A DNA stretch of 64,000 bases from Candidatus Omnitrophota bacterium (GTDB lineage: Bacteria > Omnitrophota > Gorgyraeia > JABMRG01 > JAFGKX01): assembly GCA_043797125.1 (NCBI GenBank), contig JAZDPX010000013.1:73180-137179 (forward strand). Reading direction: 5' to 3'. Positions 3,246 to 20,810 of this stretch are shown here, piece after piece. A program made the translations under genes and the position numbers. Each line of letters starts with the position of its first letter. The first letter of the stretch is position 1. Under the pieces are notes generated by a model that had not been told where the DNA came from, did not search any database, and worked only from the letters and a program-made list of their open reading frames with translations.

Positions 3246-3713
3246 TTACAGGAAATATTCTTCCACGGCGCTGCTAAGATTCTCATTATCCTGTTCTTCA
3301 TAATCATTTGTATTGCCATTGCCGCTGGTTAAAGAAACAAGAAATTGCGCCTGTTCCTGTAAATATACTTCGGCTGTATCGTGCCTGACAGACAGCCGCA
3401 TTATAAAAGAAAACGCTATAATCAAAACTGTTAGAATTGCCGCAGCCGCAAACGCGGGCCTTGGCATATGAAAAAAGGCAGGCTTTGGCGCGCTTTCTAT
3501 TTTATCTTTAATATTATACCAGAGCGCCTTAGGGGCGTTCTTTTTTTCTGCCTGCTTTAACGGCTCTACGGCTGTTTTGCGCATAGCTTCCTCGAAACGC
3601 TTACATTCGCTGCAGGCGCTTAGATGAAGCGTTATTTCTTTGCGCAGCCCTTCGCTAATCTCGTTATCAAGATAATCCGTGATAATTATTTCCTGAATTT
3701 CCTTACAATTCAT
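3246..3713 (-). CDS. Anti-sigma factor (zinc-finger ZAS-like, single TM) cognate to the upstream ECF sigma. The ORF track extends it to 3746; the likely start is 3713, overlapping the sigma stop by 11 nt.
   Basis: HLSACSECKRF (HxxxCxxC zinc anti-sigma motif), one hydrophobic TM segment AAAAILTVLIIAFSFIM, located immediately 3' of the ECF sigma gene. Confidence 0.65.
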   Translation of the reverse strand: MNCKEIQEIIITDYLDNEISEGLRKEITLHLSACSECKRFEEAMRKTAVEPLKQAEKKNAPKALWYNIKDKIESAPKPAFFHMPRPAFAAAAILTVLIIAFSFIMRLSVRHDTAEVYLQEQAQFLVSLTSGNGNTNDYEEQDNENLSSAVEEYFL

Positions 3714-4239
3714 TTTTACCGCCCCTTTTGCCAAATTGAGTAACAAGCGCCTCCCTGGCCCTCTTAAGCCTTGAGCGCACGGTATTTATATTAATCTTTA
3801 AGGTGTCCGCTATCTCCTGATAGCTTAGGCCTTCTATGTTTCTTAACACTATGCAGGAACGCTGCTCGGGGTTAAGCGCGGCTAACAAAGATTTAATTAG
3901 CGCTTCGTTTGGCTGCTCTTTAGTTTCGGCTGCTATATCATCGGTAAGCTCTACGAGCTTGCCTGATTCCCTGGTTCTTTTTTTACATGTATTTATGGCG
4001 GTATTAACAGCTATTCTGTAGGCCCATGTTTTAAATGACGAGCGGAATTGGAAATTTTTAAGGTTCTTATATATGTTTACAAACACATCCTGCGTAATTT
4101 CTTTGGCGTCTTCGGCGTTATTAGCCATGCGAAAAGCAAGATTATACACAAAATCAGAGCTTACATCATATATGCTCTGAAAAGCGCTCATATTGCCCTC
4201 CGATGCCTCTTTTATAATGTTATCCGGTATATCCTGCAT
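3703..4239 (-). CDS. ECF-type RNA polymerase sigma-70 factor (RpoE-like).
   Basis: 178 aa. Region-2 motif DVFVNIYKNLKNFQFRSSFKTWAYRIAVNTAIN. Region-4 HTH SYQEIADTLKININTVRSRLKRAREAL. Confidence 0.85.
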   Translation of the reverse strand: MQDIPDNIIKEASEGNMSAFQSIYDVSSDFVYNLAFRMANNAEDAKEITQDVFVNIYKNLKNFQFRSSFKTWAYRIAVNTAINTCKKRTRESGKLVELTDDIAAETKEQPNEALIKSLLAALNPEQRSCIVLRNIEGLSYQEIADTLKININTVRSRLKRAREALVTQFGKRGGKNEL

Positions 4240-4305: not shown

Positions 4306-4334
4306 AAAAAACCCCAAGCTAAATTTGCTTGGGG
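4306..4334 (-). terminator. Rho-independent terminator downstream of the 528-aa secreted-protein gene.
   Basis: Minus strand: ccccaagc-aaattta-gcttgggg hairpin followed by uuuuuu. Confidence 0.6.
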
Positions 4335-4362
4335 TGAAAATAACAATTTTTCTTGTTAATGT

Positions 4363-5949
4363 TTATGCGGCCATATTAAATCCAGCAAATATGGAATCCG
4401 AACTTTGTACTTTAAGCTTGAACATGTCCATTGACTTATCTATTTTACTATTGCCTTGAACAAGGGATAGCTTAGATATTGTTTCTATGTCATCTTCCGA
4501 TACAAGAGTAATTGGCGGTTGGATTTTGTATTCAACTTCTAATTTGCTAAATTCCGTTTGCCTATTACAACCATTAAAAAAATCTTTAGCCACAATCGCA
4601 TATATCATGCCTGATTTATCCAAGGCGAAATTTATAAGCGGGCATGGCCCAAAATATGTAAAAGTTGCACGCTCACGAAAACTGCTCTCTCCAGCGCTTT
4701 CCTGCTTATCCTTATCTTCATAAGAGCTGGTAACTATTGTTTTATCCTTACCAAAGGTGATGTTGTGTTTCATATCCGTGTCTGTGCCATCGGTCAACTT
4801 GCGATATGAGGCTTCGAATTTAATTTCTTCGCCGGAGCTTAGAGTTACAACAAAGTAATTTCTGTCAGCGCCGCCTAATTTGCGCTCCGAGTCTGATTTG
4901 TTGCGCGTTAAGTGGCCGCTGGTTTTATTTTTATAATCGTTATATATATAAAGATGATAACCCTTTTCTTGCATAATCTTTCCTAATTTTTCAAATAGCT
5001 CGGAGTAAGAAACATTTTCTACGGAGGCCATAATATCCGGACTAATCGGATATAACGCTTTTGTTTTTCCGGCTGCAGGCTCAAGTATAAACATACTCGG
5101 TTTGTTAGTCAATGAATGGCCCAATTCTGCGTTTTCATATTTTTCATAAAATTCTTTAGTTACATATGCCTTAACACATACGCCCCTATCGTTTCCAGCA
5201 TCATAAACCACCAATCCAAAACCTCTGATGGGGTTTGGGCCTTTAATCACAACGCCTTTTGAGCTTGAATAATAGCCGTCTTTTTTGTGTTGCTCCTTAG
5301 GGAAATCGATCGCGCCGATGCATTCAGAAATTTCTGCTTTATCTTTGCCAAATATAAATTCATCGCGGGAAAACAATCTTTCATTGTATTCGTCTTTTTC
5401 GGAATATGTGCGGTCTTTTGATTTTCTAAAAATCAGAGTGCCGTCTTTTTGTAAAATAATTTCGTCGGTTTCGAAATTAGTTTTGCGCACATATCTTATT
5501 CCTTCCCCGGAAGGGGCTATTTCCAGGTTAAACTTCGCACAAGGATATTGCATGTCTGATATTGCTTTTCCAATTACTAGTACTAATGCCCGGAATAGTT
5601 CAAGGTTGGGATTGACGCCTTCTTGCGGGGGTATTTCCATCCTAAAGCCCTCATGCGGAGAATACATACTTGATATTTCAACTTCAAGTTCTGGTGTTAT
5701 TTTAAAGCTGCTAATAAAGTTGCTGTTAAAGATATCTGTGAGATTAAAATCTTTCTTAGGCAACCCTCCTTCTACTATTCTGAATATTCTAAAAGAAGCA
5801 GGCCTTAATGCAGATGCATTATATTGTTTTTGATTAAAATAAGGCGTGGAATTTAAAATTTGCGTGGAAGTAAATAAAAGTGCTATTGTAGTTGATAGTA
5901 TCTTACGCATAATATTAGCCCGTTCCATATTAACAGCTGATACAGCCAT
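4363..5949 (-). CDS. Hypothetical secreted protein, about 515-528 aa. Probable true start is MRKILS at 5910.
   Basis: Long ORF co-directional with and immediately downstream of the giant gene. N-terminal signal-like MRKILSTTIALLFTSTQILNS. No recognisable catalytic motif. Confidence 0.6.
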   Translation of the reverse strand: MAVSAVNMERANIMRKILSTTIALLFTSTQILNSTPYFNQKQYNASALRPASFRIFRIVEGGLPKKDFNLTDIFNSNFISSFKITPELEVEISSMYSPHEGFRMEIPPQEGVNPNLELFRALVLVIGKAISDMQYPCAKFNLEIAPSGEGIRYVRKTNFETDEIILQKDGTLIFRKSKDRTYSEKDEYNERLFSRDEFIFGKDKAEISECIGAIDFPKEQHKKDGYYSSSKGVVIKGPNPIRGFGLVVYDAGNDRGVCVKAYVTKEFYEKYENAELGHSLTNKPSMFILEPAAGKTKALYPISPDIMASVENVSYSELFEKLGKIMQEKGYHLYIYNDYKNKTSGHLTRNKSDSERKLGGADRNYFVVTLSSGEEIKFEASYRKLTDGTDTDMKHNITFGKDKTIVTSSYEDKDKQESAGESSFRERATFTYFGPCPLINFALDKSGMIYAIVAKDFFNGCNRQTEFSKLEVEYKIQPPITLVSEDDIETISKLSLVQGNSKIDKSMDMFKLKVQSSDSIFAGFNMAA

Positions 5950-6011: not shown

Positions 6012-9000
6012 TTAAGCTGCTTGCTGCAGTGCCACAGCGACTTTTTCATCAACTCTTCTTGGCAGAATCTCTTCCTTTTGATCCTTTACTTTATCGAACG
6101 TCTGTTTCCTGTACTCTTTTAAAAGCTCGAGAAATTCACTATCATCTGAAAATTTAAAAACTTTAATGTTATTACCTGAGCTGTTTCCGTTTGCATCGTT
6201 GATCTTTTTCTTGATTATCTTTATAGCATCATATCCAACCCTTACTATATCCTTTTCGCTAGCTAATCTTCTCCATTGATCCCAATATATATCAACGCCT
6301 GACCATGCTGCGCCAAGCATCATAATATCGTAAGTTACAAAACTTAGGCCTGTGCCTAATTCTTTAAAATGTTCAATATATTTATCTAAACTCAATGTAT
6401 CTGAAGGAGTAGCTATATTGATACCGACCTGCAACCCGTCCTGGCCAGGTATCAGATTCATTTCTTTCAGTATGTGTTTCCAGGCGATAACAACTGCCCC
6501 TGCCTGAGTGCCTTGCAAATCAGTAATTTGCAAGCCAAGACGCTTCTTCTGCTGAACGCCTAACTTATCGCGCGCTTCTTTAAAAGCCTGCAATTCTAAA
6601 CGATTTATCGGATAGAAATCACTTATCGCCTTAGCTGCGCCTTTTAAGCCATAATCGGGGTTAGGATTGACATCTTCAACTAAGAATGAACCCACAAGCA
6701 TATTGCTAAGTTCAGCGCAATTAAGGCTGGTTGTCGTATGGATAACAAACTCTTCTGTATTATTCTTTAAAGTATCTAGAATGTGCTGCTTAAATACTTG
6801 CCTGATAAACTCATCCGCTGTTTTGTCTTCCTGTTTGAGTAATGAAGATATGTCATTTTTAAGTTGCTTGATATATTTTTCTCTTACGGCATCCTGCTTG
6901 GGAATCTCGATGCTTTTGTTTTTTGCAATATTATTACAAATATTTTCAAGTGAAGTTTTTATGCTATCTTCCGGAAGACCTTTTATCTTTTGCATAAACC
7001 TGCCGAGTAGATCCTTTTTTTCTGATTCATCAGAAATTTTAGAAATCTTGTCTGCTTCATCATATAAATCACCGATGTGTTTATTAAATATCTCGGCAAA
7101 ATTTTTCTCAAAATTTTTCTCATCGCTGCCGTAGGCGTGTATAAGCAAAGGATGAAACTTAAATGCGCCATATGCATCATTTGCGTTTTCCCTGACAGCC
7201 AATTCTTCGTTTACAGCAGGCTCAATCTCCGGTATCGGCAGCGATCTAGGCTCTACCTTTTCTCTTTTCACTTTTAAATCGCCTTCGTAAATTTTGCCTG
7301 CCTTATAGTCTATTGTAACAAATTTACCGTTTAATTTTGTTTTTTCTTTTCCTATATTTTTCGATATTACTTTTACCCTTGTCGGAATAATACTTTTGCC
7401 TGCGTCAAATACATCCCAGTCCTCCAGGCTGACGCCTGCATCTATGATTATAGCTTTTGCATACTGCAGATCATCCCAATCAATGCCCTGCCTCTCAAGG
7501 CCTTCTGTTGTATTATCCCAGGCCTTATTCCATGCCTTTAAGATGCCACTGCGCGAGTTTTCGTCGAAGTTCATATTTTCTAATTTGTTCAAAAATTTAT
7601 CTGAAGTAATACTGTATAAATTGGCCCACACATAAACATTTTCAGAAACTTCTCTCACCAAGCCTTTCTCCAGCAGGATATTAAAATCTTTCTCCTTCAT
7701 CGTTTCTAGAAACTCTTGTTTTTGCATTAACACAAAATTTTTAGTTAAAACAACTATTTTATTATATACACTCATAGTGCTCTGCGCGCTTTCCGGGCTT
7801 TGCAATTTCATAAATTCTTTTTTCTTGGTAAGCTCATCGCCTTTAAGGCCTTTTAAACTGTTTGGCACCAAATCATCCTTATCATCTATAAAAATAATTT
7901 CACCCTTAATAACGCCTTCGTCCTGCCTAATTTCGTCACCATTTGATTTTAAATCAATTAATATGTTTCTGTCTTTGGAAGGCACGTCTATTTCTTTCAT
8001 TGCGGACATAGCATCATAACGCACCATTGATGCGAGCAGCCTTACCGACATGGTACTTACCCCAAAAGAATTAAGCAAGGCCATTACTTTGCCTGCTAAA
8101 TCATAACGGCGTATTTTAACCAGATTTGTCACTAACTCACCGCATAATTTTGTAATTATTTCATGGTTATCAGCCTCTCTTACCACAGCCTCAATAAGCT
8201 GCAATATAGTATAGGCACCCTCAAAAGCCAATGGCAGGTTCTTATTGCTTTTATCATAGTAATATCCGCTTTTAATTATTTCATCTATTGCTTGTATCGC
8301 TGCCGGGTCTTCTATTTTTAGCTTTGTTTTGTAGTCCTCCCTGCAGGCTTTTGAGGCTATATAAGTATAGTCATTGGTCCCGAATGAGAAAAAGACGGAT
8401 TCTACTCCGTATTTTTTATATTTTTCCTTAATTTGATTCAGCCTTTCGCTTATTTCAGAGATCTGCATAGCGCAACTCGGCACTTCAATCATAATGCCAA
8501 CTTCTCTTGGAAGCATACCTTTTTTACCTGCCGCCATTTGCAAAGCCCTATCCATAATTTCAAGCTCATTGGCAAATCTTATAAACACATAAAAAAAAGA
8601 CTGGTTGCGCGTATTTTTGTGAGCGTCTATAACAGCCTCTATTAAAAAAGAAAGTACTTTCTGGTCGTAATGTTCGAGCTTAATGCCTCGCAAGCCGACA
8701 AATGGATTTTTCCCGGGCTCTGCAAATATGTCGCCTATCAAGCCTCTTATTTTATCCATAGCAAAATCGTATGACCTGGCGCTTGCTTTCTGCATTGAGC
8801 CGCAGCAAAAACCCATCAGATTATAAAAATTATAGAAATTCTTCGAAAGATATTCCTGCGCCGATGCGCACCCCCCTTCTTTAATCTTTTCTTCTGTCTT
8901 TTTTATAACATATTCATTAGCTTTCATTTTTTCAATTATATTGTAGTCATAATTAAAATTTCTTTCCATTTCCCCGTAATAGTGCGCAATGAGATTTGCT

Positions 9001-12000
9001 CCCTGCTCGCCCGGCACTTGCTGAATAAATTGCCATAGCCTTCCTTGTTCAGAAGATAGTTTGGGTTTATTGTTGCCATTTTCTTCTTCTCTTATTGCAT
9101 CAAGAACCGCCAAAAGCTTTATGCCACAATCTTTTGCATATTGCTTACCAACTATATTTTTAAATTTTTGCAAAGCATCTTTTTTAAGATATCTGTAGAT
9201 TTCATCGTTAACTTTTTCTACAAAATCGGCAAACAACCTATTTTCTTTGTCTTTTTTCGATTTTTTAGACTTGCTAATGATTTCTTTGGCCGATATTCTT
9301 TTCGGAGGCTGCATTTTGCCAGCTTCTATTTGCTTGATAAGGTCATATCCATAAGCATCTGTTGGATGAATCCCTAATTTTTCTCCCAGGAACTCCGCTC
9401 GTTCTAAGGCATTGCCATCTGAATCAGCAAGTATGTGGGGCGCATTCCGCTGCACTGCTTCTTCAGCAGCTATTACAAGGCCTATGCCCGGCACTTCGAA
9501 GTCATCTTCATCCACCCATTTTACTTTTCTAAGTCCTGGTTTAATTACAACGCGCTTAACTCCGGGGATTGCATATGGTTTTAATCTCAATTTAGTAAAT
9601 TTTATAGGAATTTTGTTGTTTGGATCTATTTTAAATAAACGCCCGCTATTCGCATCTATGGTTAAACCATCGCCGGTTTTTAATGCCCTGTTATCAAGCA
9701 CAATCGGCCGTGTGCCGGTGATAGCCGGAATACACCTTTCTCTGCAGAATATCGCTGCGTGGCAAGTATCTCCTCCGTGGATTGTGACCACCGCATCAAC
9801 AAGGTTCATTATAGGATCATGGTGAGGGTCTGCTTCAGACAAATAAAGCGCTACAGGCAGTTTCTTCTCTGATTTTTCCGTGTAGTCATCGGGATTAAAT
9901 CCTAAATCTCTTATAAGTTTTCTTTCGCCATCGGTAAATTTACCTCGCTTTAATCGCTTTATTTCATCTGCATGCCAGGCAACGCTTTTTGTTGTATCAA
10001 ACGCAAGAATATAAGCATGAGTCGCGTTCTCTCCCTTTGTACCCGTAGCTATAGGCTTAATTCCATGCTTCTCAATAAAGTCTTCATCTGTTTCTGTCCG
10101 CTTAAGCACAAAATCCACTTTTGTATATTCTGCTGTATATGGCCTTGCTTGCACATTATATAAGCTGAGTTTAACCATATTTTCATTGCTGCTTATTATT
10201 TGCTCTTTTTCCTCGCCGCTAAGCTCTATAATCTCGTCATTTCTCATGCCCAAAACATTGCCTTCTTTATCCAACGCATATATACTAATCTTAGAGCCTC
10301 CTTCTGCCTTAGGATCAATCTCGATAGCAAATTCCACATCTCTTGCGTCTTTATAAAAATTGGCTATTTTTGACACCATTATGGCAACTTTCGCGGCTTC
10401 AGAATCTGATATTGAAAACGCATCTTTATGCGAATCTGTAGTCAATATATTGCAGGTAAAACTATTGTCAATTAACGACCTTATAAGATAGCTTAGATTC
10501 TTAAAGTTTCTCTCGTCAACACCTATCTTGTCTAAAATGGTTTTCTTGTCCGTATCTGGCACATCGGGTCTTTCGTTATGCCATACCCCCTTGACCATTT
10601 TGATAAAAGAATCTATATAATCATTTCCTTGTTTTTTTCTGTTGAAATATTTCTTCAAATTATTTTTGCCTTTACTGGACTTTTCTTTGGTCATTTTAAC
10701 TAAATCATATGTACCATCAACTATCTTTTTCAGGTTATCTTCATCGATGCCGCTCGCTCTGGAAGCGTCCTGTACATAAAATTTTGATTTTATATATTCC
10801 ACAACCCGACCTTTTATCTCTGCGGGATTGGTGTTGTTATCTACCCCGGATTTAAACATATCGGCAATTTTTTCCGCTTCCATCTGCAAGCGCACTTTTT
10901 TATCATTATCTGTTTCGCCTGATTCTGGTATCAAATAAGAAATACCCTGTAAATCTTTTGCTAAGATACCTTTAATCTGCTTCTGCACTTCATCGTAGCT
11001 TATAGCGTCTTTAACCATCGAAGCTATGTTGCGAATTTTGGTTTCGTCAAGGCCTTCCTTTTGTCTTAAAAATTCAAAGGCATATTCTACATCCACCATT
11101 TGTATAAATTTATCTCCTTTTTCGGACTGAACGGTAAACCAGTTATCCCCATCCAGCGTAACCATGACAAATTTATCGCCTCTTACTTTACCGCCAACAA
11201 CATTCTCTCCATACCCATGGCTTATCTCAAAGCTTACAACATTTGCCTTTGTGCTGATGATTTCGCCTTTTTCATTACGATTAACAAAAGTATCATCATT
11301 CTCATACCAGGCCTTATATAAAGCCTGGGAAACGCCGGCGAATTTGGTAGCTGGATTCACTGTAAATGCCACTCCCGCTAAACAACTTTCTACCATGCGC
11401 ATAATGACTACGGACATTCCCACCAAATCAGGATGTACAAATTCTTTTGCAGTCTCCATTAATAATTCCAAACAATGGCTTATTTCAGCGTTCTTGGGTT
11501 CGTATTCCAATATTTCTATCATGGCCTTAATTAAATTTACCGAACCTGGGTTTTGATATTTGGTAAGCGTATCTGCTATTTTTCCAAGTTGTGAATTTTT
11601 ACTAGAATATTCACGAAGTTTCTCCATTAAATTATGATATACCCTTTGCGGTTCTGTTTCTCCAAAGCCCATAGTAGCGGCAAAAATTTGGAATATGTCT
11701 CCATCCCTATAGCTTATGGCTCTGTCTGTAAATAAACTGGCACAGCAAGCCTTCCATTTATCAAGTACGTTCTTAATGCCCCTGACATTAAGATAGGTAT
11801 CTGCCTGTCCGGCCTGAGAGCCGCTTGTAACAGGGAACCAGGATTGTATTTTGCTGTCCTCGCCTCTTATGCCTGAGCTTCTTTCCGCGACAGCGACAGG
11901 AGTTTTTTTGCCGGATAAATGCGCCAGAATATTCAGGTGTCTATACATCCTGATAATCTCTTCTTCTACCTCTTCGGGGATTTTTGCGTTCATTATGGCG

Positions 12001-13799
12001 TGGCGTATTCTATCTCCTATTACATTTCTTATCTGGTCGTCTGTAGCGTCCAAAGTAGCTAATTCTTCTATGGCCTTTCTCGCTTCCTCATTAGCTTTTA
12101 CTAATGCAAAATATGCTGTTGAGGTAGCATTAACACCCCAGGGGGTAGGCGCAACGCTTTCGGTCAGCGAAAGGCTTAAGCCCTTTCCTCCGGATAATTC
12201 AAACCCGCCTGATTTCAGGAATTCCTTATATCCTTCTTTGAGGTGTTTAAGTTTGTTTTCAAGTCGGTTTTTATAAACTAACGAATCAGGGTTTTTCTTT
12301 AATTCAGATTCAATTTTACTTATATCATTTCTATATTTCTCATCTTCTTTTTCAAATAATTCTTGATGCTGCCTCTGCTCTTTAAAAGTCAGGCAATAGC
12401 GTTTCCAGGCCGGTATTTTAGCGCGTTTTAAAAAATATACATAATCATCAAGAACAAGGTCTATCGCTCCTTTTCTTTCTTTTCTTATTTCTTCTGCGTT
12501 TTCCGCAATTGCCTCAAGCGTTATTCCGCCCAGCTCCTCCGCTAACTTAACTATGCTAGTTTTCCCGGGTTCTATTCTAACATCATTATTGCTATCTTTT
12601 TTGACAATGGCTATGGGCTGTGCATTAAAGTAGAGAACATAATATTTCTCATCGGGCTTAACCTCTTCTTTAAAATATTTCCCTAACCGCCCTTTAATAT
12701 CCTTGCTATCCTTTAAGTCTATAAGCTTTTCCATATAGCTGAATGGCAATTCTTCCTTAGAATCTTTTAACTTATAAGTGTCTGTGCCTAAAACCTGCTC
12801 TAGTACCTCTTCTTTCCTGATTGCGTCAACGGATAGGGGCTTATATTGAGACAATAAAGGGGCTCGTTCAATACGCTCTTCTCTTGACAGCGTTATTTTT
12901 TGCTCTTTTTCAAGCTTGAATACATTACAAATTGTTTCTTTAAGCTCACCAATTGCTATAATAAGAGAAACGGATTGAAAGGCTTCACCTTGCTCACTAG
13001 CTATATCCTTGGCATGCTCTATACAGGACAAAGCTTCTTCCATGTTCCCTGTTATATACAGCAGATATGCGATATTCATTTCTGATATGGCTTTTCTGTT
13101 AACGCCGTAAGCCTCGTTCCATCCGACCAGCAGGGTGTTTAAAATAGACTTTTCCCTTTGGGATAATTTTCCAAATACTTTCTCAAGCCCGATAGGAAAA
13201 CCCGTTATTTTTAATTGTATTGATATTTTTTCAAATTCTTCTGTTATGATAGGAACGGGATGCAAGATAAGCGGTATTTCTGTTATTAGTAATGTCCTGT
13301 CTCCTTTTCTTAATAACTCTTCTGCAAACTTATCCATAAGGTTGCATATATGCTGCTCGTAGTTAAGGCGCGTTGTTTCAGAAGTAATATTCTGCGCTAA
13401 CTGCATAGCCTTATGCACACAAGCTAAAGCTAATCCTAACTCCTCTGCTTCATATAAAATTTTTGCAATCCCTAAGCATATTTTAGTTTTTTTCTTATCT
13501 TGCGTGCTGGGTTTTTGCCATAATAGCAAATGCGCAGTTAGTTTTGAGGCTGCTGTTTCACTTAATTTCCCAACTACCTCCAGTAGGTCAACGGGGAATT
13601 CTGCTTGTTCTAGTATTCGCTTTGTAGCCTTATCGAGCTCATCACGGAGACTGTTATCTGTCTTAGCTGTAGAAACACCGCGCAGGGCATTATTTTTTGC
13701 GGTTTGATTTGCTGCAGGCAGGTAATGAAGATTTGCGCTTTGGCAGGTAAAAATAATAGTAAATAATAGTGTTATTGTTTTTTTGTAAATACGAGCCAT
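6012..13799 (-). CDS. Giant 2595-aa multidomain protein. An N-terminal signal/anchor plus TPR-like helical region is followed by a complete PEP-synthase/PPDK-type catalytic core: PPDK_N ATP-grasp nucleotide domain, phosphohistidine swivel domain and PEP-utilizing TIM barrel. The core domains are separated by very large insertions, and there is a C-terminal extension of about 600 aa.
   Basis: Uninterrupted 7.8-kb ORF.
- PPDK_N motifs (about nt 11300-12210): SGGKGLSLSLTES...WGVNATSTAYFALV, VAVAERSSGIRGED...SGSQAGQADTYLNVRG, SVVIMRMVESCLAGVAFTVNPATK, VVSFEISHGYGENVVGG.
- Phosphohistidine motif TIHGGDTCHAAIFCRERCIPAITGT at about nt 9745-9800.
- TIM-barrel motifs IMIEVPSCAMQISE and FFSFGTNDYTYIA at about nt 8380-8520.
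- N-terminus MARIYKKTITLLFTIIFTCQSA is signal/anchor-like. Confidence 0.75.
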   Translation of the reverse strand: MARIYKKTITLLFTIIFTCQSANLHYLPAANQTAKNNALRGVSTAKTDNSLRDELDKATKRILEQAEFPVDLLEVVGKLSETAASKLTAHLLLWQKPSTQDKKKTKICLGIAKILYEAEELGLALACVHKAMQLAQNITSETTRLNYEQHICNLMDKFAEELLRKGDRTLLITEIPLILHPVPIITEEFEKISIQLKITGFPIGLEKVFGKLSQREKSILNTLLVGWNEAYGVNRKAISEMNIAYLLYITGNMEEALSCIEHAKDIASEQGEAFQSVSLIIAIGELKETICNVFKLEKEQKITLSREERIERAPLLSQYKPLSVDAIRKEEVLEQVLGTDTYKLKDSKEELPFSYMEKLIDLKDSKDIKGRLGKYFKEEVKPDEKYYVLYFNAQPIAIVKKDSNNDVRIEPGKTSIVKLAEELGGITLEAIAENAEEIRKERKGAIDLVLDDYVYFLKRAKIPAWKRYCLTFKEQRQHQELFEKEDEKYRNDISKIESELKKNPDSLVYKNRLENKLKHLKEGYKEFLKSGGFELSGGKGLSLSLTESVAPTPWGVNATSTAYFALVKANEEARKAIEELATLDATDDQIRNVIGDRIRHAIMNAKIPEEVEEEIIRMYRHLNILAHLSGKKTPVAVAERSSGIRGEDSKIQSWFPVTSGSQAGQADTYLNVRGIKNVLDKWKACCASLFTDRAISYRDGDIFQIFAATMGFGETEPQRVYHNLMEKLREYSSKNSQLGKIADTLTKYQNPGSVNLIKAMIEILEYEPKNAEISHCLELLMETAKEFVHPDLVGMSVVIMRMVESCLAGVAFTVNPATKFAGVSQALYKAWYENDDTFVNRNEKGEIISTKANVVSFEISHGYGENVVGGKVRGDKFVMVTLDGDNWFTVQSEKGDKFIQMVDVEYAFEFLRQKEGLDETKIRNIASMVKDAISYDEVQKQIKGILAKDLQGISYLIPESGETDNDKKVRLQMEAEKIADMFKSGVDNNTNPAEIKGRVVEYIKSKFYVQDASRASGIDEDNLKKIVDGTYDLVKMTKEKSSKGKNNLKKYFNRKKQGNDYIDSFIKMVKGVWHNERPDVPDTDKKTILDKIGVDERNFKNLSYLIRSLIDNSFTCNILTTDSHKDAFSISDSEAAKVAIMVSKIANFYKDARDVEFAIEIDPKAEGGSKISIYALDKEGNVLGMRNDEIIELSGEEKEQIISSNENMVKLSLYNVQARPYTAEYTKVDFVLKRTETDEDFIEKHGIKPIATGTKGENATHAYILAFDTTKSVAWHADEIKRLKRGKFTDGERKLIRDLGFNPDDYTEKSEKKLPVALYLSEADPHHDPIMNLVDAVVTIHGGDTCHAAIFCRERCIPAITGTRPIVLDNRALKTGDGLTIDANSGRLFKIDPNNKIPIKFTKLRLKPYAIPGVKRVVIKPGLRKVKWVDEDDFEVPGIGLVIAAEEAVQRNAPHILADSDGNALERAEFLGEKLGIHPTDAYGYDLIKQIEAGKMQPPKRISAKEIISKSKKSKKDKENRLFADFVEKVNDEIYRYLKKDALQKFKNIVGKQYAKDCGIKLLAVLDAIREEENGNNKPKLSSEQGRLWQFIQQVPGEQGANLIAHYYGEMERNFNYDYNIIEKMKANEYVIKKTEEKIKEGGCASAQEYLSKNFYNFYNLMGFCCGSMQKASARSYDFAMDKIRGLIGDIFAEPGKNPFVGLRGIKLEHYDQKVLSFLIEAVIDAHKNTRNQSFFYVFIRFANELEIMDRALQMAAGKKGMLPREVGIMIEVPSCAMQISEISERLNQIKEKYKKYGVESVFFSFGTNDYTYIASKACREDYKTKLKIEDPAAIQAIDEIIKSGYYYDKSNKNLPLAFEGAYTILQLIEAVVREADNHEIITKLCGELVTNLVKIRRYDLAGKVMALLNSFGVSTMSVRLLASMVRYDAMSAMKEIDVPSKDRNILIDLKSNGDEIRQDEGVIKGEIIFIDDKDDLVPNSLKGLKGDELTKKKEFMKLQSPESAQSTMSVYNKIVVLTKNFVLMQKQEFLETMKEKDFNILLEKGLVREVSENVYVWANLYSITSDKFLNKLENMNFDENSRSGILKAWNKAWDNTTEGLERQGIDWDDLQYAKAIIIDAGVSLEDWDVFDAGKSIIPTRVKVISKNIGKEKTKLNGKFVTIDYKAGKIYEGDLKVKREKVEPRSLPIPEIEPAVNEELAVRENANDAYGAFKFHPLLIHAYGSDEKNFEKNFAEIFNKHIGDLYDEADKISKISDESEKKDLLGRFMQKIKGLPEDSIKTSLENICNNIAKNKSIEIPKQDAVREKYIKQLKNDISSLLKQEDKTADEFIRQVFKQHILDTLKNNTEEFVIHTTTSLNCAELSNMLVGSFLVEDVNPNPDYGLKGAAKAISDFYPINRLELQAFKEARDKLGVQQKKRLGLQITDLQGTQAGAVVIAWKHILKEMNLIPGQDGLQVGINIATPSDTLSLDKYIEHFKELGTGLSFVTYDIMMLGAAWSGVDIYWDQWRRLASEKDIVRVGYDAIKIIKKKINDANGNSSGNNIKVFKFSDDSEFLELLKEYRKQTFDKVKDQKEEILPRRVDEKVAVALQQAA

Positions 13800-13905
13800 A
13801 GGTTTCTCTAAAGTGAAATATGTTAAGATGATATAAATGGTTAAAAAAAGTACTTAATATTATACACAAAAAAAATTCCTGTGTCAATCAAAATATTTAC
13901 GTGTG

Positions 13906-14826
13906 TTATGGCAATAATTTTACGCTAAGCAGATTAAATAGGTAGCCTGTAAAGATAATTCCAAGGGTGGTTATGCCGAAAAATATAATTACAAGCTTAA
14001 GTTTCATAGCCCGCCTTAGTATTACTGCTTCCGGAAGGCTTAAGGCAGATACAGCCATCATAAAGGCAAGGGCGGTGCCTAAGGGGACGCCTTTTCTAAA
14101 TAGCGCGACGGCAATGGGCACGATAGCGGCGCAGCTTCCGTACATTGGAACGCCTAAAAGCACTGCTATGGGCACTGAAAACGGGCCAGTCTTTGCGATT
14201 GCCCCCTGGATGGTTTCTTTTGGCACATAATTATGTATAACGGCGCCTATACCAACGCCTATTAATATCCAGGGCCATAACCTTTTTAAAATTAATTTCG
14301 CCTCGCCTACGCCAAAAAGAATTCTGTCCTTTATTGAGGTGAATTGGAGCAGCTTTTCTGTTTCGGTTTTTATCGGAAGAAAATCCCTGTCAATGTATTT
14401 ATCTAATTTCATTTTACCTAATATAAGCCCGACAAACACGCCTAAAAAAATTCCGCTTAAGACATAAAACGCGGTTATCTTCCAGCCGAAAAAACCAAGC
14501 ATCAGGACGACCAGATATTCATTGACTAAGGGCGAGGTTATCAGGAATGAAAAGGTAACGCCCAAAGGCACCCCTGTTTTTAGAAAGCCCAAAAATATCG
14601 GAATTGATGAACATGAGCAAAACGGGGTTATGGCGCCGAACATCGAGGCGTATATATTCGCGAAAAACTTTTTTTTGGCAAGCCAGGAACGCACCTTGCC
14701 CTGTGATAAATAGCTTCGCAGGAATCCCACAAAGGATATCATCACAAAAAGCAAAAGCATTATCTTTACGGAGTCGTAGACAAAAAATTGCAGCAATCCA
14801 ACTAATCCATTTTTATGATCAATCAT
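13906..14826 (-). CDS. Polytopic membrane permease, DUF318/ArsP-like family with a Cys-X-Cys motif.
   Basis: 306 aa, multiple TM segments. ITPFCSCSSIP motif characteristic of DUF318/ArsP-type permeases. Located directly downstream of the HME-RND pump. Confidence 0.55.
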   Translation of the reverse strand: MIDHKNGLVGLLQFFVYDSVKIMLLLFVMISFVGFLRSYLSQGKVRSWLAKKKFFANIYASMFGAITPFCSCSSIPIFLGFLKTGVPLGVTFSFLITSPLVNEYLVVLMLGFFGWKITAFYVLSGIFLGVFVGLILGKMKLDKYIDRDFLPIKTETEKLLQFTSIKDRILFGVGEAKLILKRLWPWILIGVGIGAVIHNYVPKETIQGAIAKTGPFSVPIAVLLGVPMYGSCAAIVPIAVALFRKGVPLGTALAFMMAVSALSLPEAVILRRAMKLKLVIIFFGITTLGIIFTGYLFNLLSVKLLP

Positions 14827-14844
14827 ATCAAGCCCTTTAGCTTT

Positions 14845-14940
14845 GGTAATAGTTCAGCTCTGGGAAGTTTTCACGACGTAGCGCAGGCTTAAGCCTGCGC
14901 TACGTCCGAGTCGAGATACTTACAATGACTGAACTGTTAC
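14845..14940 (+). repeat. Palindromic MITE/REP-like element, full-length reference copy.
   Basis: ggtaatagttcagctctgggaagttttcacgacgtagcgcaggcTTAAgcctgcgctacgtccgagtcgagatacttacaatgactgaactgttac. The ends are imperfect inverted repeats (gtaatagttcag... / ...ctgaactgttac) flanking a 15-bp perfect stem. Confidence 0.85.
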
Positions 14941-17900
14941 TAGCTTTGAAGCAGGCGGCGTTCCTGGTACCATGAATAAAGGCAGGGCACGATAAACCAG
15001 GTTATCATCTCTATAACCATACCGCCCAACGACGGAATAGCCATGGGCTGCATAACTTCCGAACCGCTTCCTTTTATAAACATAATCGGTAAAAGCGCGA
15101 CAATGGTTGTAATGGTCGTAAGAAACGCCGGGCGTATCCTGCCTAAGCCCGCGTAGACTGTGGCCTCGACCACGTCTTTTTTTGATTTTATCTTATCTTT
15201 TCTCTCCTTAAAAACATCGTCCAGATATGTAGTCATTAAAATTCCGTCATCAACAGCCACTCCGAAGAGCGCGATAAAACCGACCCAAACGGCGATGGAA
15301 AAATTATACCCTGAAAACGCCAAAAGCCATATTCCGCCAGATAAGGTAACCGGTATTGCCGTAAATATAAACAGGCTTTTTACTACGGATCTAAAATTCA
15401 TGTAAATAATCATGAAGTTCAAAAGAAGGCTTATCGGCACCAAAACCAGCAGTTTCTTTTTTGCCCTCACCTGATTTTCAAACTGGCCTGACCATTCAAG
15501 AAAATAATTTTCCGGAAGTTTGAGCTTCTCCCTTACAACGCGCGATGCCTCCTCGACAAATCCCACCATATCACGGCCACGCACGTTCATAAGCACGTAT
15601 GCCCTTAGCAGGCCGTTTTCCGAATTTATCATCGCCGGGCCTGTTACAAAATATATATCCGCAAGCTGCGTTATCGGAATCTGCTGGCCGTCCGAAGTCG
15701 GCACAAGTACGCGCCTTAAGGCATCCGGGGTATCGCGCAGTTCCCTCGGGTAGCGCACCCTGACAGGATAGCGCTCTCTGCCCTCCAGCGTGGTTGTTAT
15801 ATTTTCGCCGCCAATACCCATCTCGATAACATCCTGCACGTCGCTTATGCTTAATCCATAGCGGGCAATCTGGTCGCGTTTAATCTTAAATTCAATATAA
15901 GGTTTGCCGACTATCTTTTCCGAATATAAATCCGCCGCTCCCCTGACGCCCTTAAGGATATTCTCGACCTCCTGGGCAATATCCTGAATTTTATTTAAGT
16001 CCGGGCCGAATACCTTTACCCCGACAGATGTCCTTATGCCCGTAGCCAGCATGTCAATTCTGTTAATTATCGGCTGGGTCCAGATATTTGAAACACCCGG
16101 TATCTGAAGGCTTGAGTTCATTTCCTGGATAAGCTTGTCCTTGGTCATGCCTTTACGCCATAGGTTTTTTGGTTTAAGCGTAATTGTTGTCTCAAACATT
16201 TCTATCGGGGCAGGATCTGTGGCGGTCTCCGCGCGCCCGAGTTTTCCTACCACCATCTCAACTTCGGGAAACTTACTTATTACCTCATCCTGAATCTTTA
16301 TTATGCGGTGCGCTTCGGTAAGCGATACGGCAGGCTGCATAACCGGCATAAACAAAATACTTCCTTCATCAAGCGGCGGCATAAACTCCCTGCCTATAAA
16401 CGCGGCCGCAACCAAAGAGCCTGTTAGAACTAAGGCGGGTATCAAGAGAAATTTTTTTCGGTTAGCAAGCACCCAGCGTAGTATTTTTTCATAATATCTG
16501 TGGAGCGCGCTAACAAGAGGGTTTTCCTCGGGTTCGCGCAGGCGGCCCCTTAAGCCAAAGAAGCACAAAACCGGGGTAAATGTTAAAGCTACGGTAATCG
16601 ACGCTAAAAGGGCTAATGTCTTTGTCCAGGCAAGCGGATGAAAAAGCTTGCCCTCTTGCGCTTCAAGCGCGAAGACAGGGAAAAATGAGACTACTGTCGT
16701 AAGAACAGCTGTTAAAACAGCGCTGCCTACTTCAGAAGCAGCGCCGAAGATAACCTCAAGCCTTGTTGTTATGCCTTTTTTTATGTCTTGCGCATTGAGA
16801 ATAAGCCTTCTATAGGAATTTTCAGTCATAATTATTCCCATGTCAACAAGGGTTCCTATGGCAATGGCTATGCCTGACAACGACATAATATTGGAGTCTA
16901 TACCAAGATAATACATTGCAATGAACGCTATCAAAACCGAAAATGGAAGAGCTATGCATATTATGAAACCCGCAAATATGTGGGCCATAAACGGGACAAC
17001 CACTGCCATAGTGATAATAATCTCAAGGATCAGCGCCTCTTTTAAAGTCCCTATTGTGCGATGAATTAAACCTGTGCGGTCGTAAAATGGTATTATCTTT
17101 ATATCGGAAGGCAGGCCTGCCTGTAACTGTTTTATTTTCTCCTTAACGCCGTGTATTACCTGCATCGCGTTCTGGCCGTAGCGCATAACAACTACGCCGC
17201 CTACAACTTCTTTTCCGGCCTTATCCAATATGCCTCTTCTGAATTCAGGGCCAAGCTGCACAGAAGCTATGCTTTTAAGATATATAGGGGTGCCTTCTTT
17301 ATACCCAACAGCGATATTTTCTATATCCTCGACGGATTTGATAAATCCCAGGCCTCTTACGATATATTCCATTGCCCCTGACTCTATAACTTTCGCGCCT
17401 ATATCGATATTTGACTTTTTAACCGCTTCAAGTGTTTCCCGCAGGCTTATGTTCTGGCTTGACATCTTGTTGGGGTCAACGTCTATCTGATACTGCCTTA
17501 AAAATCCTCCGACTGTTGCAACCTCTGACACGCCTTCAACAGAATTAAGCTGATAACGGATAAACCAGTCCTGCATGCTCCTTAATTCGTCTAATGACCT
17601 GTTTTCCCCTTCTACCGTATACCAGAAGACCTGGCCCAGGCCTGTCGCATCCGGCCCAAGAACCGGCATTATACCTTGCGGAAGTTTTGTTGAGGCAATA
17701 TTAAGTTTTTCCAGAACGCGGGAACGCGCCCAATAGTAATCTATCTTATCGTGGAATATCAGGTATATTTCCGAAAATCCGAACGCTGACGCGGCTCTGA
17801 TGGTTTTAACTCCGGGAACGCCTTTAAGAGATATTGAAAGCGGGTATGTAACCTGGTCTTCCACATCTTGCGCGGAACGGCCCGGCCATTCGGTATAAAC

Positions 17901-18044
17901 AATGACCTGTTTTTCTCCTATATCCGGAATTGCGTCAATAGGAACGTTGGTAAGCGCCCATAGCCCCCAGAAAAAAACAGCCGCATATATTATGAAAACT
18001 ATAAGCGGAGTCTTCAAGCAATACGAAATTAATCTGTTTATCAT
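14940..18044 (-). CDS. cusA: Heavy-metal efflux RND transporter, CusA/CzcA (HME-RND) family.
   Basis: 1034 aa, 12-TM RND architecture. N-terminal region LKTPLIVFIIYAAVFFWGLWALTNVPIDAIPDIGEKQVIVYTEWPGRSAQDVEDQVTYPL is typical of CusA/CzcA. Confidence 0.85.
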   Translation of the reverse strand: MINRLISYCLKTPLIVFIIYAAVFFWGLWALTNVPIDAIPDIGEKQVIVYTEWPGRSAQDVEDQVTYPLSISLKGVPGVKTIRAASAFGFSEIYLIFHDKIDYYWARSRVLEKLNIASTKLPQGIMPVLGPDATGLGQVFWYTVEGENRSLDELRSMQDWFIRYQLNSVEGVSEVATVGGFLRQYQIDVDPNKMSSQNISLRETLEAVKKSNIDIGAKVIESGAMEYIVRGLGFIKSVEDIENIAVGYKEGTPIYLKSIASVQLGPEFRRGILDKAGKEVVGGVVVMRYGQNAMQVIHGVKEKIKQLQAGLPSDIKIIPFYDRTGLIHRTIGTLKEALILEIIITMAVVVPFMAHIFAGFIICIALPFSVLIAFIAMYYLGIDSNIMSLSGIAIAIGTLVDMGIIMTENSYRRLILNAQDIKKGITTRLEVIFGAASEVGSAVLTAVLTTVVSFFPVFALEAQEGKLFHPLAWTKTLALLASITVALTFTPVLCFFGLRGRLREPEENPLVSALHRYYEKILRWVLANRKKFLLIPALVLTGSLVAAAFIGREFMPPLDEGSILFMPVMQPAVSLTEAHRIIKIQDEVISKFPEVEMVVGKLGRAETATDPAPIEMFETTITLKPKNLWRKGMTKDKLIQEMNSSLQIPGVSNIWTQPIINRIDMLATGIRTSVGVKVFGPDLNKIQDIAQEVENILKGVRGAADLYSEKIVGKPYIEFKIKRDQIARYGLSISDVQDVIEMGIGGENITTTLEGRERYPVRVRYPRELRDTPDALRRVLVPTSDGQQIPITQLADIYFVTGPAMINSENGLLRAYVLMNVRGRDMVGFVEEASRVVREKLKLPENYFLEWSGQFENQVRAKKKLLVLVPISLLLNFMIIYMNFRSVVKSLFIFTAIPVTLSGGIWLLAFSGYNFSIAVWVGFIALFGVAVDDGILMTTYLDDVFKERKDKIKSKKDVVEATVYAGLGRIRPAFLTTITTIVALLPIMFIKGSGSEVMQPMAIPSLGGMVIEMITWFIVPCLYSWYQERRLLQS

Positions 18045-18045
18045 A

Positions 18046-19419
18046 TTAATGGTGAATATGTTTTGTTTCTATCTTTGGCTCTTCTTCGGCAGGCGTTTCT
18101 AATCCTGCCTCTATTTCCTGGGCGCCTGACCACAACAAGCTCGCTCCACCTGTAAGCTGGCTTTGGGAATCTATAAGAAAATTTCCTTTTGTAACAATTA
18201 CATCGCCTTCGCTTAACCCGCTTAAGACAGGGTAGAATTGAGACGCTATGCCCTCTTCTTCTGCCGATGCAAGTGAACCAATCTTTATTTCTCTTCCTAC
18301 AAATTCGCCTTCTTTGGCTTGAATATATACAATTTTTCGAACGCCCGTGTCTAACACAGCGTCTTTGGGCACAGCCAAAATCATACCATCTTCATTTTGT
18401 GTTACTGTATATATATCTTCTATAACAACATTCACATACATCTGGGGTTTCAGTTTTAGATCCGGGTTATCCACTTCTATTCTTACCCGCGCTGAACGGG
18501 TCTTTGGGTCTATGACAGGATTTATTGACACTACTGCTCCTTTGAATTCCTCGCCGGGATATGCATCGGTCGTAATTTTCGCTTCCTGGCGCGGCTTAAC
18601 CCAGCCGAGTTCATACTCATATATCTGGGCATACGCCCACATTTTATCTTGCGGCAATATTAAACTCTGGTCGGCAGTAGTCTGGTTTTGCAGGCTTGCT
18701 ATATATTCATCGCTTAAGCCAAGCAATTTAAGCCTGGTCTTTGACCTGTTTAAAATGTCATCGGCGCGCGCGATTACATCCGGGTCCGGGCTATTTCCAA
18801 CTTTTTCCCTGGTCTGAACCGCGGTTAGAAATTCCTCTTGCGCAACAGCAAGTTCCGGATCATAAGCTATGGTTCCTGACGCACGTATGAGCTTTGACAA
18901 ACTTCTCTTTTTTATCGGCTCTGTTTTTATGCCTGCAAGATCGACCTGCTGCTTATTAAGGCTGACCCTCGATACCGCTGTTTCGCCATTCTGAACTCTT
19001 AGTTTCGCCGCCTGTTCAGGCTTTATCTTTTTAAGGGGTTTTTTGCATACGGGGCAGCTCATTTGCTTATCCGCTGTGATTACAAATGAATGGCCGCCGC
19101 ATATGCATTGCGCGTCTTTTATGCCTTCGTCGCAATGCTTACAATGGCCTTGTTCTGTCACGCCGCAGCCATAATAATCCTCATTAGCCTGTACCGCTTC
19201 ATCCTGCTGCGGCTCTGCTGTTTCATAAACAGGGATTAAGTCCATGCCGCAGATGGGGCATTTGCCTTTTTTTTCAGCGTGCACGCTTGGGTGCATAGAA
19301 CATGTCCAATATGAAATCTTTTGCTCGGTGCTAGTTTTTTCTACCGCTTGTGCCACGCAAACTGTCGCAGTTAAAAGTGCTGTTAATACGACAGCCGCTA
19401 AAATTATTTTGAGTCTCAT
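18046..19419 (-). CDS. cusB: RND efflux periplasmic adaptor (CusB/CzcB-like) with N-terminal Cys/His-rich heavy-metal-binding domains.
   Basis: 457 aa. Signal peptide. YWTCSMHPSVHAEKKGKCPICGMDL is a TCSMHP...CPICGM heavy-metal-binding module. A second cluster is CKHCDEG...CICGGH...CPVCKKPL. Membrane-fusion beta-barrel/lipoyl segments follow. Confidence 0.8.
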   Translation of the reverse strand: MRLKIILAAVVLTALLTATVCVAQAVEKTSTEQKISYWTCSMHPSVHAEKKGKCPICGMDLIPVYETAEPQQDEAVQANEDYYGCGVTEQGHCKHCDEGIKDAQCICGGHSFVITADKQMSCPVCKKPLKKIKPEQAAKLRVQNGETAVSRVSLNKQQVDLAGIKTEPIKKRSLSKLIRASGTIAYDPELAVAQEEFLTAVQTREKVGNSPDPDVIARADDILNRSKTRLKLLGLSDEYIASLQNQTTADQSLILPQDKMWAYAQIYEYELGWVKPRQEAKITTDAYPGEEFKGAVVSINPVIDPKTRSARVRIEVDNPDLKLKPQMYVNVVIEDIYTVTQNEDGMILAVPKDAVLDTGVRKIVYIQAKEGEFVGREIKIGSLASAEEEGIASQFYPVLSGLSEGDVIVTKGNFLIDSQSQLTGGASLLWSGAQEIEAGLETPAEEEPKIETKHIHH

Positions 19420-19432
19420 TTATGCGCCTCCA

Positions 19433-20692: not shown

Positions 20693-20750
20693 TTTTCGGA
20701 TTAATTATAGCACGAAACTCGCTGTTCGTACAAATATTATCGAAAACAAT

Positions 20751-20784
20751 AATAGTAGGGCAGGCTTAAGCCTGCCCTACTATT
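20751..20784 (+). repeat. Palindrome-only short copy of the MITE/REP-like family.
   Basis: aatagtagggcaggcTTAAgcctgccctactatt. The stem variant gggcagg/cctgccc preserves pairing by compensatory change. Confidence 0.65.
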
Positions 20785-20810
20785 ACATAACATGTGCCTT
20801 ACGCTAATTA

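Follow-up and report, generated by a model that had tools for sequence, protein, structure and literature searches.

The stretch of DNA analysed here, hereafter the window, comprises 64,000 nucleotides of contig JAZDPX010000013.1 of a Candidatus Omnitrophota bacterium. Its minus strand carries, at positions 6012-13799, a single unbroken open reading frame (ORF) of 2595 codons, and Pfam and NCBIfam searches, together with the identity of the product to an NCBI entry, lead us to describe this product as a hyper-expanded phosphoenolpyruvate (PEP) synthase-type protein. The NCBI entry comes from a Candidatus Omnitrophota metagenome-assembled genome (MAG) and is annotated 'PEP/pyruvate-binding domain-containing protein', where it lies on a 143-kb contig.

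Three Pfam domains, each scoring above its gathering cut-off, follow one another along the protein: PPDK_N at residues 535-930 (E = 6e-45), PEP-utilizers at residues 1319-1386 (E = 2e-11) and PEP-utilizers_C at residues 1696-1892 (E = 5e-14). This is the domain order of PEP synthase (PpsA), it recurs in the relatives P0002 and P0003, and the PpsA models NF005057 and TIGR01418 are the top-ranked NCBIfam models for the protein, at 229.1 and 198.1 bits. A preliminary description of this gene, made from the DNA letters, had proposed three PEP-utilising modules in canonical order and a complete but much expanded PpsA-type core, and both proposals are borne out by the domain order, the model ranking and the catalytic residues discussed below. 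A hydropathy scan found no internal transmembrane (TM) helix in the 2595-aa protein.

Catalytic core and C-terminal pseudo-duplicate

Residue conservation was judged in alignment A1, which holds seven relatives with 39-47% identity to the 2595-aa protein, and in wider alignments of 24-26 relatives with identities down to ~21%, and two AlphaFold (AF2) models were built on 24-26 family sequences. In the seven relatives His1347, Arg1704, Glu1772, Asn1809-Asp1810, Cys1886-Gly-Glu1888 and the ATP-grasp motifs are invariant, the carrier histidine and the barrel cysteine, arginine and glutamate all being present, and the catalytic residues stay invariant or nearly so throughout the wider set. Sequence alignments to the PpsA structures 2OLS and 9DAE in the PDB cover the GGKG/RSS..ED/AGQxDT motifs, the GGxTCH swivel and the barrel, of which residues 1675-1786 align with 9DAE.

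Ahead of the ATP-grasp domain, the conservation profile and the AF2 model delimit a family-conserved pre-domain (residues 336-530; positions 12210-12794 of the minus strand, as for all parts of this gene), in which long helices come after a small beta domain. The first part of the ATP-grasp domain (PPDK_N; residues 531-930; 11010-12209) is supported by Pfam, invariant residues and the PDB alignments and contains GGKG, RSSG..ED, GSQAGQADTYLNV and GYGENVVGG. It is followed by an insertion that is all-helical in the AF2 secondary structure and has no Pfam match (residues 931-1114; 10458-11009), beyond which PPDK_N resumes, profile positions 250-295 picking up again at residues 1115-1160 (E = 8e-5). 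The second part (residues 1115-1225; 10125-10457), recognised from the PPDK_N profile and from invariant residues, supplies the closing strands DVEFAIE ... LYNVQARPYT, and D1154, E1156 and Q1217-A-R-P1220 are invariant in the seven relatives. The AF2 model of residues 330-1400 reaches a predicted local distance difference test (pLDDT) of 87.2 and a predicted template modelling score (pTM) of 0.85.

Pfam and the 2OLS alignment place the phosphohistidine swivel at residues 1250-1395 (9615-10052), with the catalytic His1347 in GGDTCHAAIFCRERCIPAITG (codon 9759-9761). The histidine, part of a GGDTCH motif, is invariant in the seven and in 24 relatives and aligns with the GGRTCH of 2OLS. The preliminary description had regarded TCH as a deviation from a canonical TSH, a view that has to be given up because 2OLS itself reads GGRTCHAAI, which makes GGxTCH the normal bacterial PpsA form. 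A family-specific linker or insertion, partly conserved in relatives according to the conservation profile and without a Pfam match (residues 1396-1660; 8820-9614), leads from the swivel to the catalytic PEP/pyruvate TIM barrel, or barrel A (residues 1661-1940; 7980-8819), which carries R1704, E1772, N1809-D1810 and C1886-G-E1888. Following published work on PPDK and Enzyme I, we take the Arg of NPxxGxRG, the Glu of xEVPS, the Asn-Asp of GTND and the Cys of CGE to be the barrel residues that serve PEP/pyruvate and Mg2+.

These borders alter the picture of modules held apart by inserts of ~450 aa and ~280 aa: the first insert is mostly a ~185-aa helical insertion inside the ATP-grasp domain itself. 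The module spacers are insertions within domains, together with an internal pseudo-duplication. By every structural criterion tested, the 2595-aa protein is a member of the PEP-utiliser superfamily, and its conserved residues make it, apparently, an active PEP synthase-type enzyme.

The pseudo-duplication occupies the C-terminal extension, where the preliminary description had noticed a second, degenerate barrel-like motif. Residues 2361-2489 align with residues 585-707 of 2OLS (phmmer, E = 6e-5), and since this is the same stretch of the barrel as the one aligned for barrel A, a second barrel is present. This degenerate and partial barrel B (residues 2347-2550; 6150-6761), delimited by the 2OLS match, conservation and the AF2 model, keeps NPNPDYGLKGAAK and NPNPDYGL-KGAAK, while its Mg-binding Glu is replaced by Ala (NIATPS) and its Asn by Tyr (FVTYD), and the CGE loop is missing. 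Its identity among relatives is 57-69%, as high as that of the catalytic core, and we conclude from this equal conservation that barrel B is under selection.

Between the two barrels lies an alpha/beta domain (residues 1946-2205; 7185-7964) with the motifs GVIKGEIIFI, KIVVL, AIIID and VTIDYKAGKIYEG, which lacks the histidine and has DAGVSLEDWD at the position of GGxTCH. Because its strand order and motifs parallel those of the true swivel in the AF2 model, we tentatively read it as a pseudo-swivel, and a helical bundle seen in the same model (residues 2206-2346; 6762-7184) joins it to barrel B. The model of residues 1640-2560 has a pLDDT of 90.6 and a pTM of 0.89, and the C-terminal 750 residues, this domain included, are 48% identical to a module inside the fused protein P0004. 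Comparison with hhalign, using shallow profiles, gave weak matches of the swivel to the C-terminal extension (E = 0.035) and of barrel A to barrel B (E = 0.016), and for this reason the duplication claim rests on the 2OLS alignment, the motif collinearity and the AF2 topology. The C-terminal extension can be read as a second, dead copy, in tandem, of the last two-thirds of PpsA, comprising swivel, helices and barrel.

Leader, LR box and C-terminal tail

The protein begins with a leader (residues 1-23; 13731-13799) made up of a basic MARIYKK, the hydrophobic TITLLFTIIFTC and QSA, which resembles a Sec-type signal or a signal anchor and has similar counterparts in 20+ relatives. It is followed at residues 37-46 (13662-13691) by the sequence NALRGVSTAK, which we call the LR box; its L39 is invariant in alignment A1, and the box is further defined by an anchored alignment of 22 proteins. 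In the form [DNS]xLR[P/x]x[SA][SA], or 'DxLRPxAA', the box follows the hydrophobic segment of all the enlarged glycolytic enzymes of this group, where the common layout in the 22 proteins is a K/R-rich stretch, a hydrophobic segment of 12-22 residues, a few small residues and the LR box, often with a short acidic amphipathic stretch behind it. Many of these relatives have h-regions ~20 residues long, which are more anchor-like than those of a cleavable signal. More than 20 enlarged PPS (PEP synthase-like), enolase, triosephosphate isomerase (TIM), glucose-6-phosphate isomerase (PGI), phosphofructokinase/fructose-bisphosphate aldolase/glyceraldehyde-3-phosphate dehydrogenase (PFK/FBA/GAPDH) and phosphoglycerate kinase (PGK) proteins carry the box, with examples at the loci L001, L002, L085, L089, L090, L091 and L096. 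Seven proteins that carry the box or lie next to one that does were scanned with NCBIfam, and no model matched the box. A recurrent 'KDGG' after the box raised the idea of a double-glycine (C39-processed) leader, which stays no more than an idea, the motif being absent here and in many relatives.

The leader thus agrees in part with the signal/tetratricopeptide repeat (TPR) N-terminus of the preliminary description: the basic and hydrophobic segment is present and kept in homologues, whereas TPR_12 stays under its cut-off of 30.1 bits, scoring 19.9 with the full-length protein and 26.1 with the N-terminal fragment, and a single TPR-like motif at residues 237-271 is sub-threshold. Residues 50-335 (12795-13652) form a tandem-duplicated helical unit of ~135 aa (self-BLAST, 26% identity, E = 3e-8), a duplication unique to the 2595-aa protein and without counterpart in its relatives.

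At the other end, an enlarged enolase, a TIM and a PPS-like protein have in common a C-terminal alpha/beta domain of ~200 aa with the motif VxxYGEDxxKLxAL (E = 4e-10 to 3e-15), copies of which lie at 7426-9978 of L001 (last 200 aa), 13299-15329 of L002 (last 190 aa) and 2565-2802 of P0002. The enlarged enzymes also share a tail of the type ..AQxxYE[ED]T[IL]xK[IV] or ..FLTxIG[IV]. By family comparison, the 2595-aa protein retains only a remnant of this domain, IKVFKFSDDSEFLELLKEY, followed by the tail ...VALQQAA (residues 2551-2595; 6015-6149). As to the role of the tail, a docking site, a degron or a PDZ-type recognition site may be considered, all of them speculative.

Among the 39 ORFs of the window, three have an LR box, namely the giant, a 528-aa neighbour (box at 5800-5830, at the N-terminus of its ORF) and a 1091-aa protein (38290-38330, likewise N-terminal). 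Exactly these three end in -AA (6015-6020, 4366-4371 and 35144-35149), as do none of the 36 others, and the chance of three out of three such termini is ~2e-7 at 7.6% Ala. The ordinary envelope proteins of the window (CusB, TolC-like, OmpA/LysM) have neither LR box nor -AA end, from which we conclude that the box marks a specific class.

In the fused giants P0004 and L093, TM helices stand between enzyme modules and are followed by a repeated basic junction, RAPPINLRSNGIK and IIRPLRLITNGIR, that is LR-box-like (P0004 residues 759-860 and 3473-3520; L093 ORF residues 1660-1730). This suggests that the stand-alone proteins are excised modules of the fused giants.

Relatives, gene neighbourhoods and window context

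A phmmer search with residues 1400-2595 against 1.84 billion representatives found 59 proteins at E <= 1e-3, about 30 of which exceed 1,000 residues, and did not reach canonical PpsA with these C-terminal 1196 residues; the family is thus a rare one. Members of 1106-1510 aa consist of a near-canonical PpsA (PPDK_N E ~1e-100) and an extra barrel, mostly with a leader, the forms of 1360-1510 aa being intermediates that unite all three, and those of 2100-3300 aa are forms resembling the 2595-aa protein. The module also occurs in fusions: in P0004 (>4169 aa) it is followed by a TM hairpin and then by methyltransferase, alpha-amylase, starch synthase/GT1, HD and ATP-grasp_5 domains, and at L093 it lies within a fusion ORF of >4926 aa. 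When genome contigs were scanned with ATP-grasp patterns shared by canonical PpsA, only ordinary PpsA appeared among the matches listed, at 32-42% identity over the best segment.

The neighbourhoods of these relatives link the family to glycolysis. In six of nine independent loci the PPS-like gene lies among enlarged or fused glycolytic enzymes, the partners across loci being PGI, PFK, FBA, GAPDH, TIM, PGK, phosphoglycerate mutase (PGM) and enolase; in the other three, this window included, it stands alone. L001 has a PGK+TIM+iPGM fusion and an 850-aa enolase, then the PPS-like gene. In L002, L003 and L092 the PPS-like gene is followed by a 676-aa TIM, and in L091 by TIM+PGK. L085 and L090 encode FBA+PFK+GAPDH (1885 aa), PGI (947 aa), the PPS-like protein and TIM+HEAT+PGK+enolase (2604 aa). 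In L089 the order is PFK+GAPDH, the PPS-like gene, a dehydrogenase and TIM+GAPDH+PGK+enolase, and in L096 it is PFK, a 1762-aa PGK-containing protein and a PpsA-like gene. No pyruvate kinase gene was found in the glycolytic cluster stretches examined, which leaves the PPS-like gene as the sole candidate there for PEP/pyruvate interconversion.

Some further observations concern these loci. At 17439-25252 of L085, TIM+HEAT and PGK+enolase appear as two overlapping calls, while the near-identical stretch at 11519-19333 of L090 is a single 2604-aa ORF, so that the split in L085 is probably due to a frameshift or an error of assembly. In two lineages the glycolytic clusters are followed by a protein of 373-437 aa (L001 18366-19679; L085 25292-26560; L090 19373-20515) that has a signal peptide, a shared 'KFWVNL' motif and no recognised domain; in L085 it is itself followed by a PilZ gene, and another PilZ gene lies near L088. 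A toxin-antitoxin-like HEPN/nucleotidyltransferase pair is found directly upstream of the PPS-like giant on two unrelated contigs (L087 4386-5089; L088 7603-8299).

In the window, the giant gene is accompanied on the minus strand by the gene for the 528-aa protein (4363-5949; 515 aa with start M14 according to NCBI), which has a signal-like N-terminus, the LR box NASALRPAS and the -AA end. A sigma-70-type promoter-like sequence, TTGACA-17-TATAAT, lies ~60 nt ahead of the point where the giant ORF begins (13859-13887, minus strand; identified from its 12/12 consensus match only), and a hairpin resembling a strong intrinsic terminator, with a 9-bp stem of 6 GC pairs and a T-run, lies 28 nt past the 528-aa ORF (4311-4335, minus strand), so that the two genes are bracketed by a putative promoter and terminator. 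Their GC contents at third codon positions (GC3), 0.36 for the giant and 0.34 for its neighbour, are the lowest of the 39 ORFs (0.41-0.53 in the others), which suggests a separate codon usage or recent acquisition. The 528-aa protein matched only itself among 5.8 billion proteins, had no Pfam, NCBIfam or PDB match, and had no relative among the neighbours of the giant's homologues. The co-transcribed two-gene module of the preliminary description is therefore plausible as a transcription unit in this genome, given the promoter, terminator, GC3, leader and -AA end, but it is not a conserved system, because the partner is an ORFan without homologues.

The third protein of the class (1091 aa; 35141-38416, minus strand) has the leader SISWAAPIQTDTLRGMSA, the -AA end and a HAD-phosphatase-like N-terminal domain (E = 8e-6). 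Its SKSGTTDET motif and a faint SIS/PGI-like match (E = 0.025) make it a possible further member of the enlarged sugar-phosphate enzymes. The flanks of the gene pair are of an ordinary kind. Upstream of the giant, at 13906-22013, lie genes for an ArsP-type permease, a CusA/CzcA resistance-nodulation-division (RND) pump, a CusB adaptor and a TolC-like protein; downstream of the pair, at 3246-4239, lie those for an extracytoplasmic function (ECF) sigma factor and a zf-HC2 anti-sigma factor. The window also encodes, at 52139-54064, a GTP-type PEP carboxykinase of normal size and without a leader.

Proposed function and significance

Our results lead us to favour, as the probable reading, a lineage-specific, hyper-expanded PEP synthase-type enzyme that serves as one module of an oversized, Omnitrophota-specific Embden-Meyerhof-Parnas (EMP) set, found as clustered genes in some genomes and as membrane-anchored multi-enzyme fusions in others, and carries out the terminal PEP/pyruvate step in a co-localised, membrane-associated assembly. 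Judging from conserved residues and folds, the nucleotide would be bound by the ATP-grasp domain, split as it is by the helical insertion, and the phosphoryl group would be carried on His1347 of the swivel to barrel A, where Arg1704, Glu1772 and Asn1809-Asp1810 may bind PEP/pyruvate and Mg2+ and Cys1886 may act as proton donor. The job of the enzyme would be the terminal conversion of PEP + AMP + Pi to pyruvate + ATP, or the reverse; the glycolytic direction appears probable because no other gene in the clusters is a candidate for this step. The dead swivel-linker-barrel duplicate would most likely be a structural or regulatory partner of the core and possibly takes the place of the partner subunit in the usual dimer formed through the barrels. 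Leader and tail, finally, may serve to co-localise the enzymes of the pathway at the membrane or to dock them there, a task that would fall to covalent fusion in the giants. The preliminary description had imagined a phosphotransfer enzyme repurposed for an envelope or host-interaction function; we found no evidence of this, and the neighbourhoods and fusions, which put the family among enlarged Embden-Meyerhof enzymes, suggest that central-metabolic chemistry has been retained.

Several observations weigh against this reading. The protein stays far below the NCBIfam equivalog cut-offs both for PpsA (229.1 bits against 598 and 198.1 against 739.75) and for PPDK (TIGR01828, 56.1 against 843.45), which means that neither the substrate nor the nucleotide it uses can be deduced with confidence from these models. 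The catalytic direction and the role of the pseudo-duplicate are what we infer. No glycolytic cluster is present in the window, where the neighbours are the ArsP permease, CusCBA, the ORFan and the ECF sigma/anti-sigma pair. Moreover, a Sec-signal-like, N-in leader would put an ATP- and PEP-dependent enzyme outside the cytoplasm, at odds with housekeeping glycolysis.

This last point leads to a possible, though on balance unlikely, explanation, in line with the preliminary description, in which the leader is a true Sec signal and the protein is an exported enzyme or effector. It would act with other leader-bearing enzymes in the periplasm, at the cell surface or at or in a prey cell, for instance on sugar phosphates or nucleotides taken from the prey, and the LR box would be a second-step sorting signal. 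In two preprints (bioRxiv 10.1101/2023.11.21.568195 and 10.64898/2026.06.07.730766), Omnitrophota giants are predicted to be membrane-bound or extracytoplasmic, with metabolic domains on the extracytoplasmic face, and loci resembling type II secretion systems and type IV pili (T2SS/T4P) and PilZ genes are noted nearby. Export would also agree with the basic n-region, hydrophobic h-region and small A/S/G residues ahead of the LR box in >20 proteins, with the absence of the box from other envelope proteins of the window, with the same leader on the ORFan partner and with the PilZ genes near L085 and L088. However, no supply of ATP/AMP, PEP or NAD+, the last being needed by the GAPDH modules, is known beyond the cytoplasm; the P0004 module is joined by its two-helix hairpin to a methyltransferase that depends on S-adenosylmethionine (SAM), in one chain with ATP-grasp_5 and HD; and many h-regions, at ~20 residues, look more like anchors than like cleavable signals. 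As regards the side of the membrane, the leader favours export, while the fusion partners and the cofactors required by the whole set (ATP, NAD+, SAM) speak for the cytoplasmic face. A bolder proposal, which we consider quite improbable, makes leader and tail a lineage-specific addressing or docking system that sends the glycogen-to-pyruvate pathway (PGI through enolase, and PEP synthase) across the cytoplasmic membrane, which would give Omnitrophota that live as predators or epibionts an ATP-yielding glycolysis located in their periplasm, on the cell surface or at the interface with the prey. If this were true, stand-alone genes and giants of 10-150 kaa (thousand amino acids) would be two packagings of one machine.

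Other alternatives concern the chemistry or the gene itself. The swivel histidine might pass its phosphoryl group to an acceptor other than pyruvate, with a glucan as the candidate, in the manner of rifampin phosphotransferase, of PigC/RedH or of the plant enzyme glucan, water dikinase. Rifampin phosphotransferases are the top Foldseek matches of the N-terminal half, Rph and PigC are among the weaker NCBIfam matches, the P0004 module is fused to alpha-amylase and starch-synthase domains, and genes of GH77 and GH94 type occur in the vicinity of L002 and L087, respectively; the conserved neighbours, however, are lower-glycolysis enzymes, and we regard another acceptor as very unlikely. A pseudoenzyme, in which the PpsA core is merely a structural platform of a giant-protein system, would account for the two-thirds of the protein that are non-catalytic, the dead swivel-barrel duplicate among them, and for scores well under the equivalog cut-offs, but the strict invariance of nucleotide-binding, His-carrier and barrel residues in divergent relatives points to selection for catalysis and makes a mere scaffold exceedingly improbable. 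That the gene arose as an assembly chimera or a mis-called ORF might be suspected from its source, a MAG contig, and from a GC3 that in this gene and its neighbour lies below the rest of the window; yet the frame is uninterrupted, confident AF2 models run across the junctions, and full-length, collinear homologues exist on independent contigs of other samples, so that the single intact 7.8-kb ORF of the preliminary description stands and the chance of an artefact is negligible.

Among known systems bacterial and archaeal PpsA (pyruvate, water dikinase, EC 2.7.9.2; N. meningitidis 2OLS and the archaeal multimeric 9DAE and 8A8E) is the closest to the enzyme we favour. It has the same three domains in the same order, shares GGxTCH and the barrel motifs NPxxGxRG, MxEVPS, FSxGTND and CGE, and gives the best sequence and structure matches. 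Unlike PpsA, which has ~790 aa, the 2595-aa protein has a helical insertion in its ATP-grasp domain, a long swivel-barrel linker, a pre-domain, a dead C-terminal duplicate and an LR-box leader. PPDK and Enzyme I of the phosphotransferase system (PTS) match far more weakly (56 and 51 bits, the latter with TIGR01417), and Enzyme I is without an ATP-grasp domain. In structure, the ATP-grasp and swivel halves resemble those of rifampin phosphotransferase, of PigC/RedH and of glucan, water dikinase (Foldseek E = 1e-14 to 5HV3). These enzymes replace or lack the PEP/pyruvate barrel, which the 2595-aa protein, unlike them, keeps with all catalytic residues.

Omnitrophota giants, the 'Archaeovorins' of West-Roberts et al. 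2023, are stated to 'frequently contain' PPDK and glycolytic domains (bioRxiv 10.1101/2023.11.21.568195), and a later preprint (bioRxiv 10.64898/2026.06.07.730766) distinguishes among long proteins a class of the 'multi-enzyme metabolic cluster' type. The two sources attribute PPDK_N, TIM, PGI, FBPase, PGM and FBA domains and signal peptides or TM helices to such giants and long proteins, and both remark on the tension between export and cofactors. These giants belong to the same phylum as the 2595-aa protein, whose module is homologous to parts of the P0004 and L093 fusions. The giants are catalogued at 7-10 kaa and above with many enzymes, whereas the present protein, at 2.6 kaa, has one enzyme core and, unlike them, neither internal TM helices nor any domain of the glycosyltransferase, peptidase, NUDIX or dockerin type. 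That Omnitrophota have giant proteins with PPDK and glycolytic domains is already known, and the 2595-aa protein belongs to this still poorly understood phenomenon as a stand-alone module, rather than being an isolated curiosity. We met no description of the LR-box leader, the C-terminal tail or the pseudo-duplicated barrel in the accessible portions of the literature on Omnitrophota giants, and, within that scope, the pseudo-duplicated swivel and barrel, the leader and tail, and the grouping of mid-size EMP enzymes with leaders into clusters appear to be additions to it.

The dead swivel-plus-barrel duplicate offers a clear case of an enzyme that makes a pseudo-partner from its own domains. 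While the giants are nearly impossible to study at their size, the 2.6-kaa protein and its 0.6-3 kaa relatives can be handled as single modules of the same system, with intact catalytic residues, confidently predicted structures and a short conserved leader and tail open to mutation, tagging and searching. Our observations open a route to asking where the glycolytic machinery of these bacteria sits, whether its termini are processed or dock, and why nanobacteria with small genomes spend coding capacity on enlarging housekeeping enzymes.

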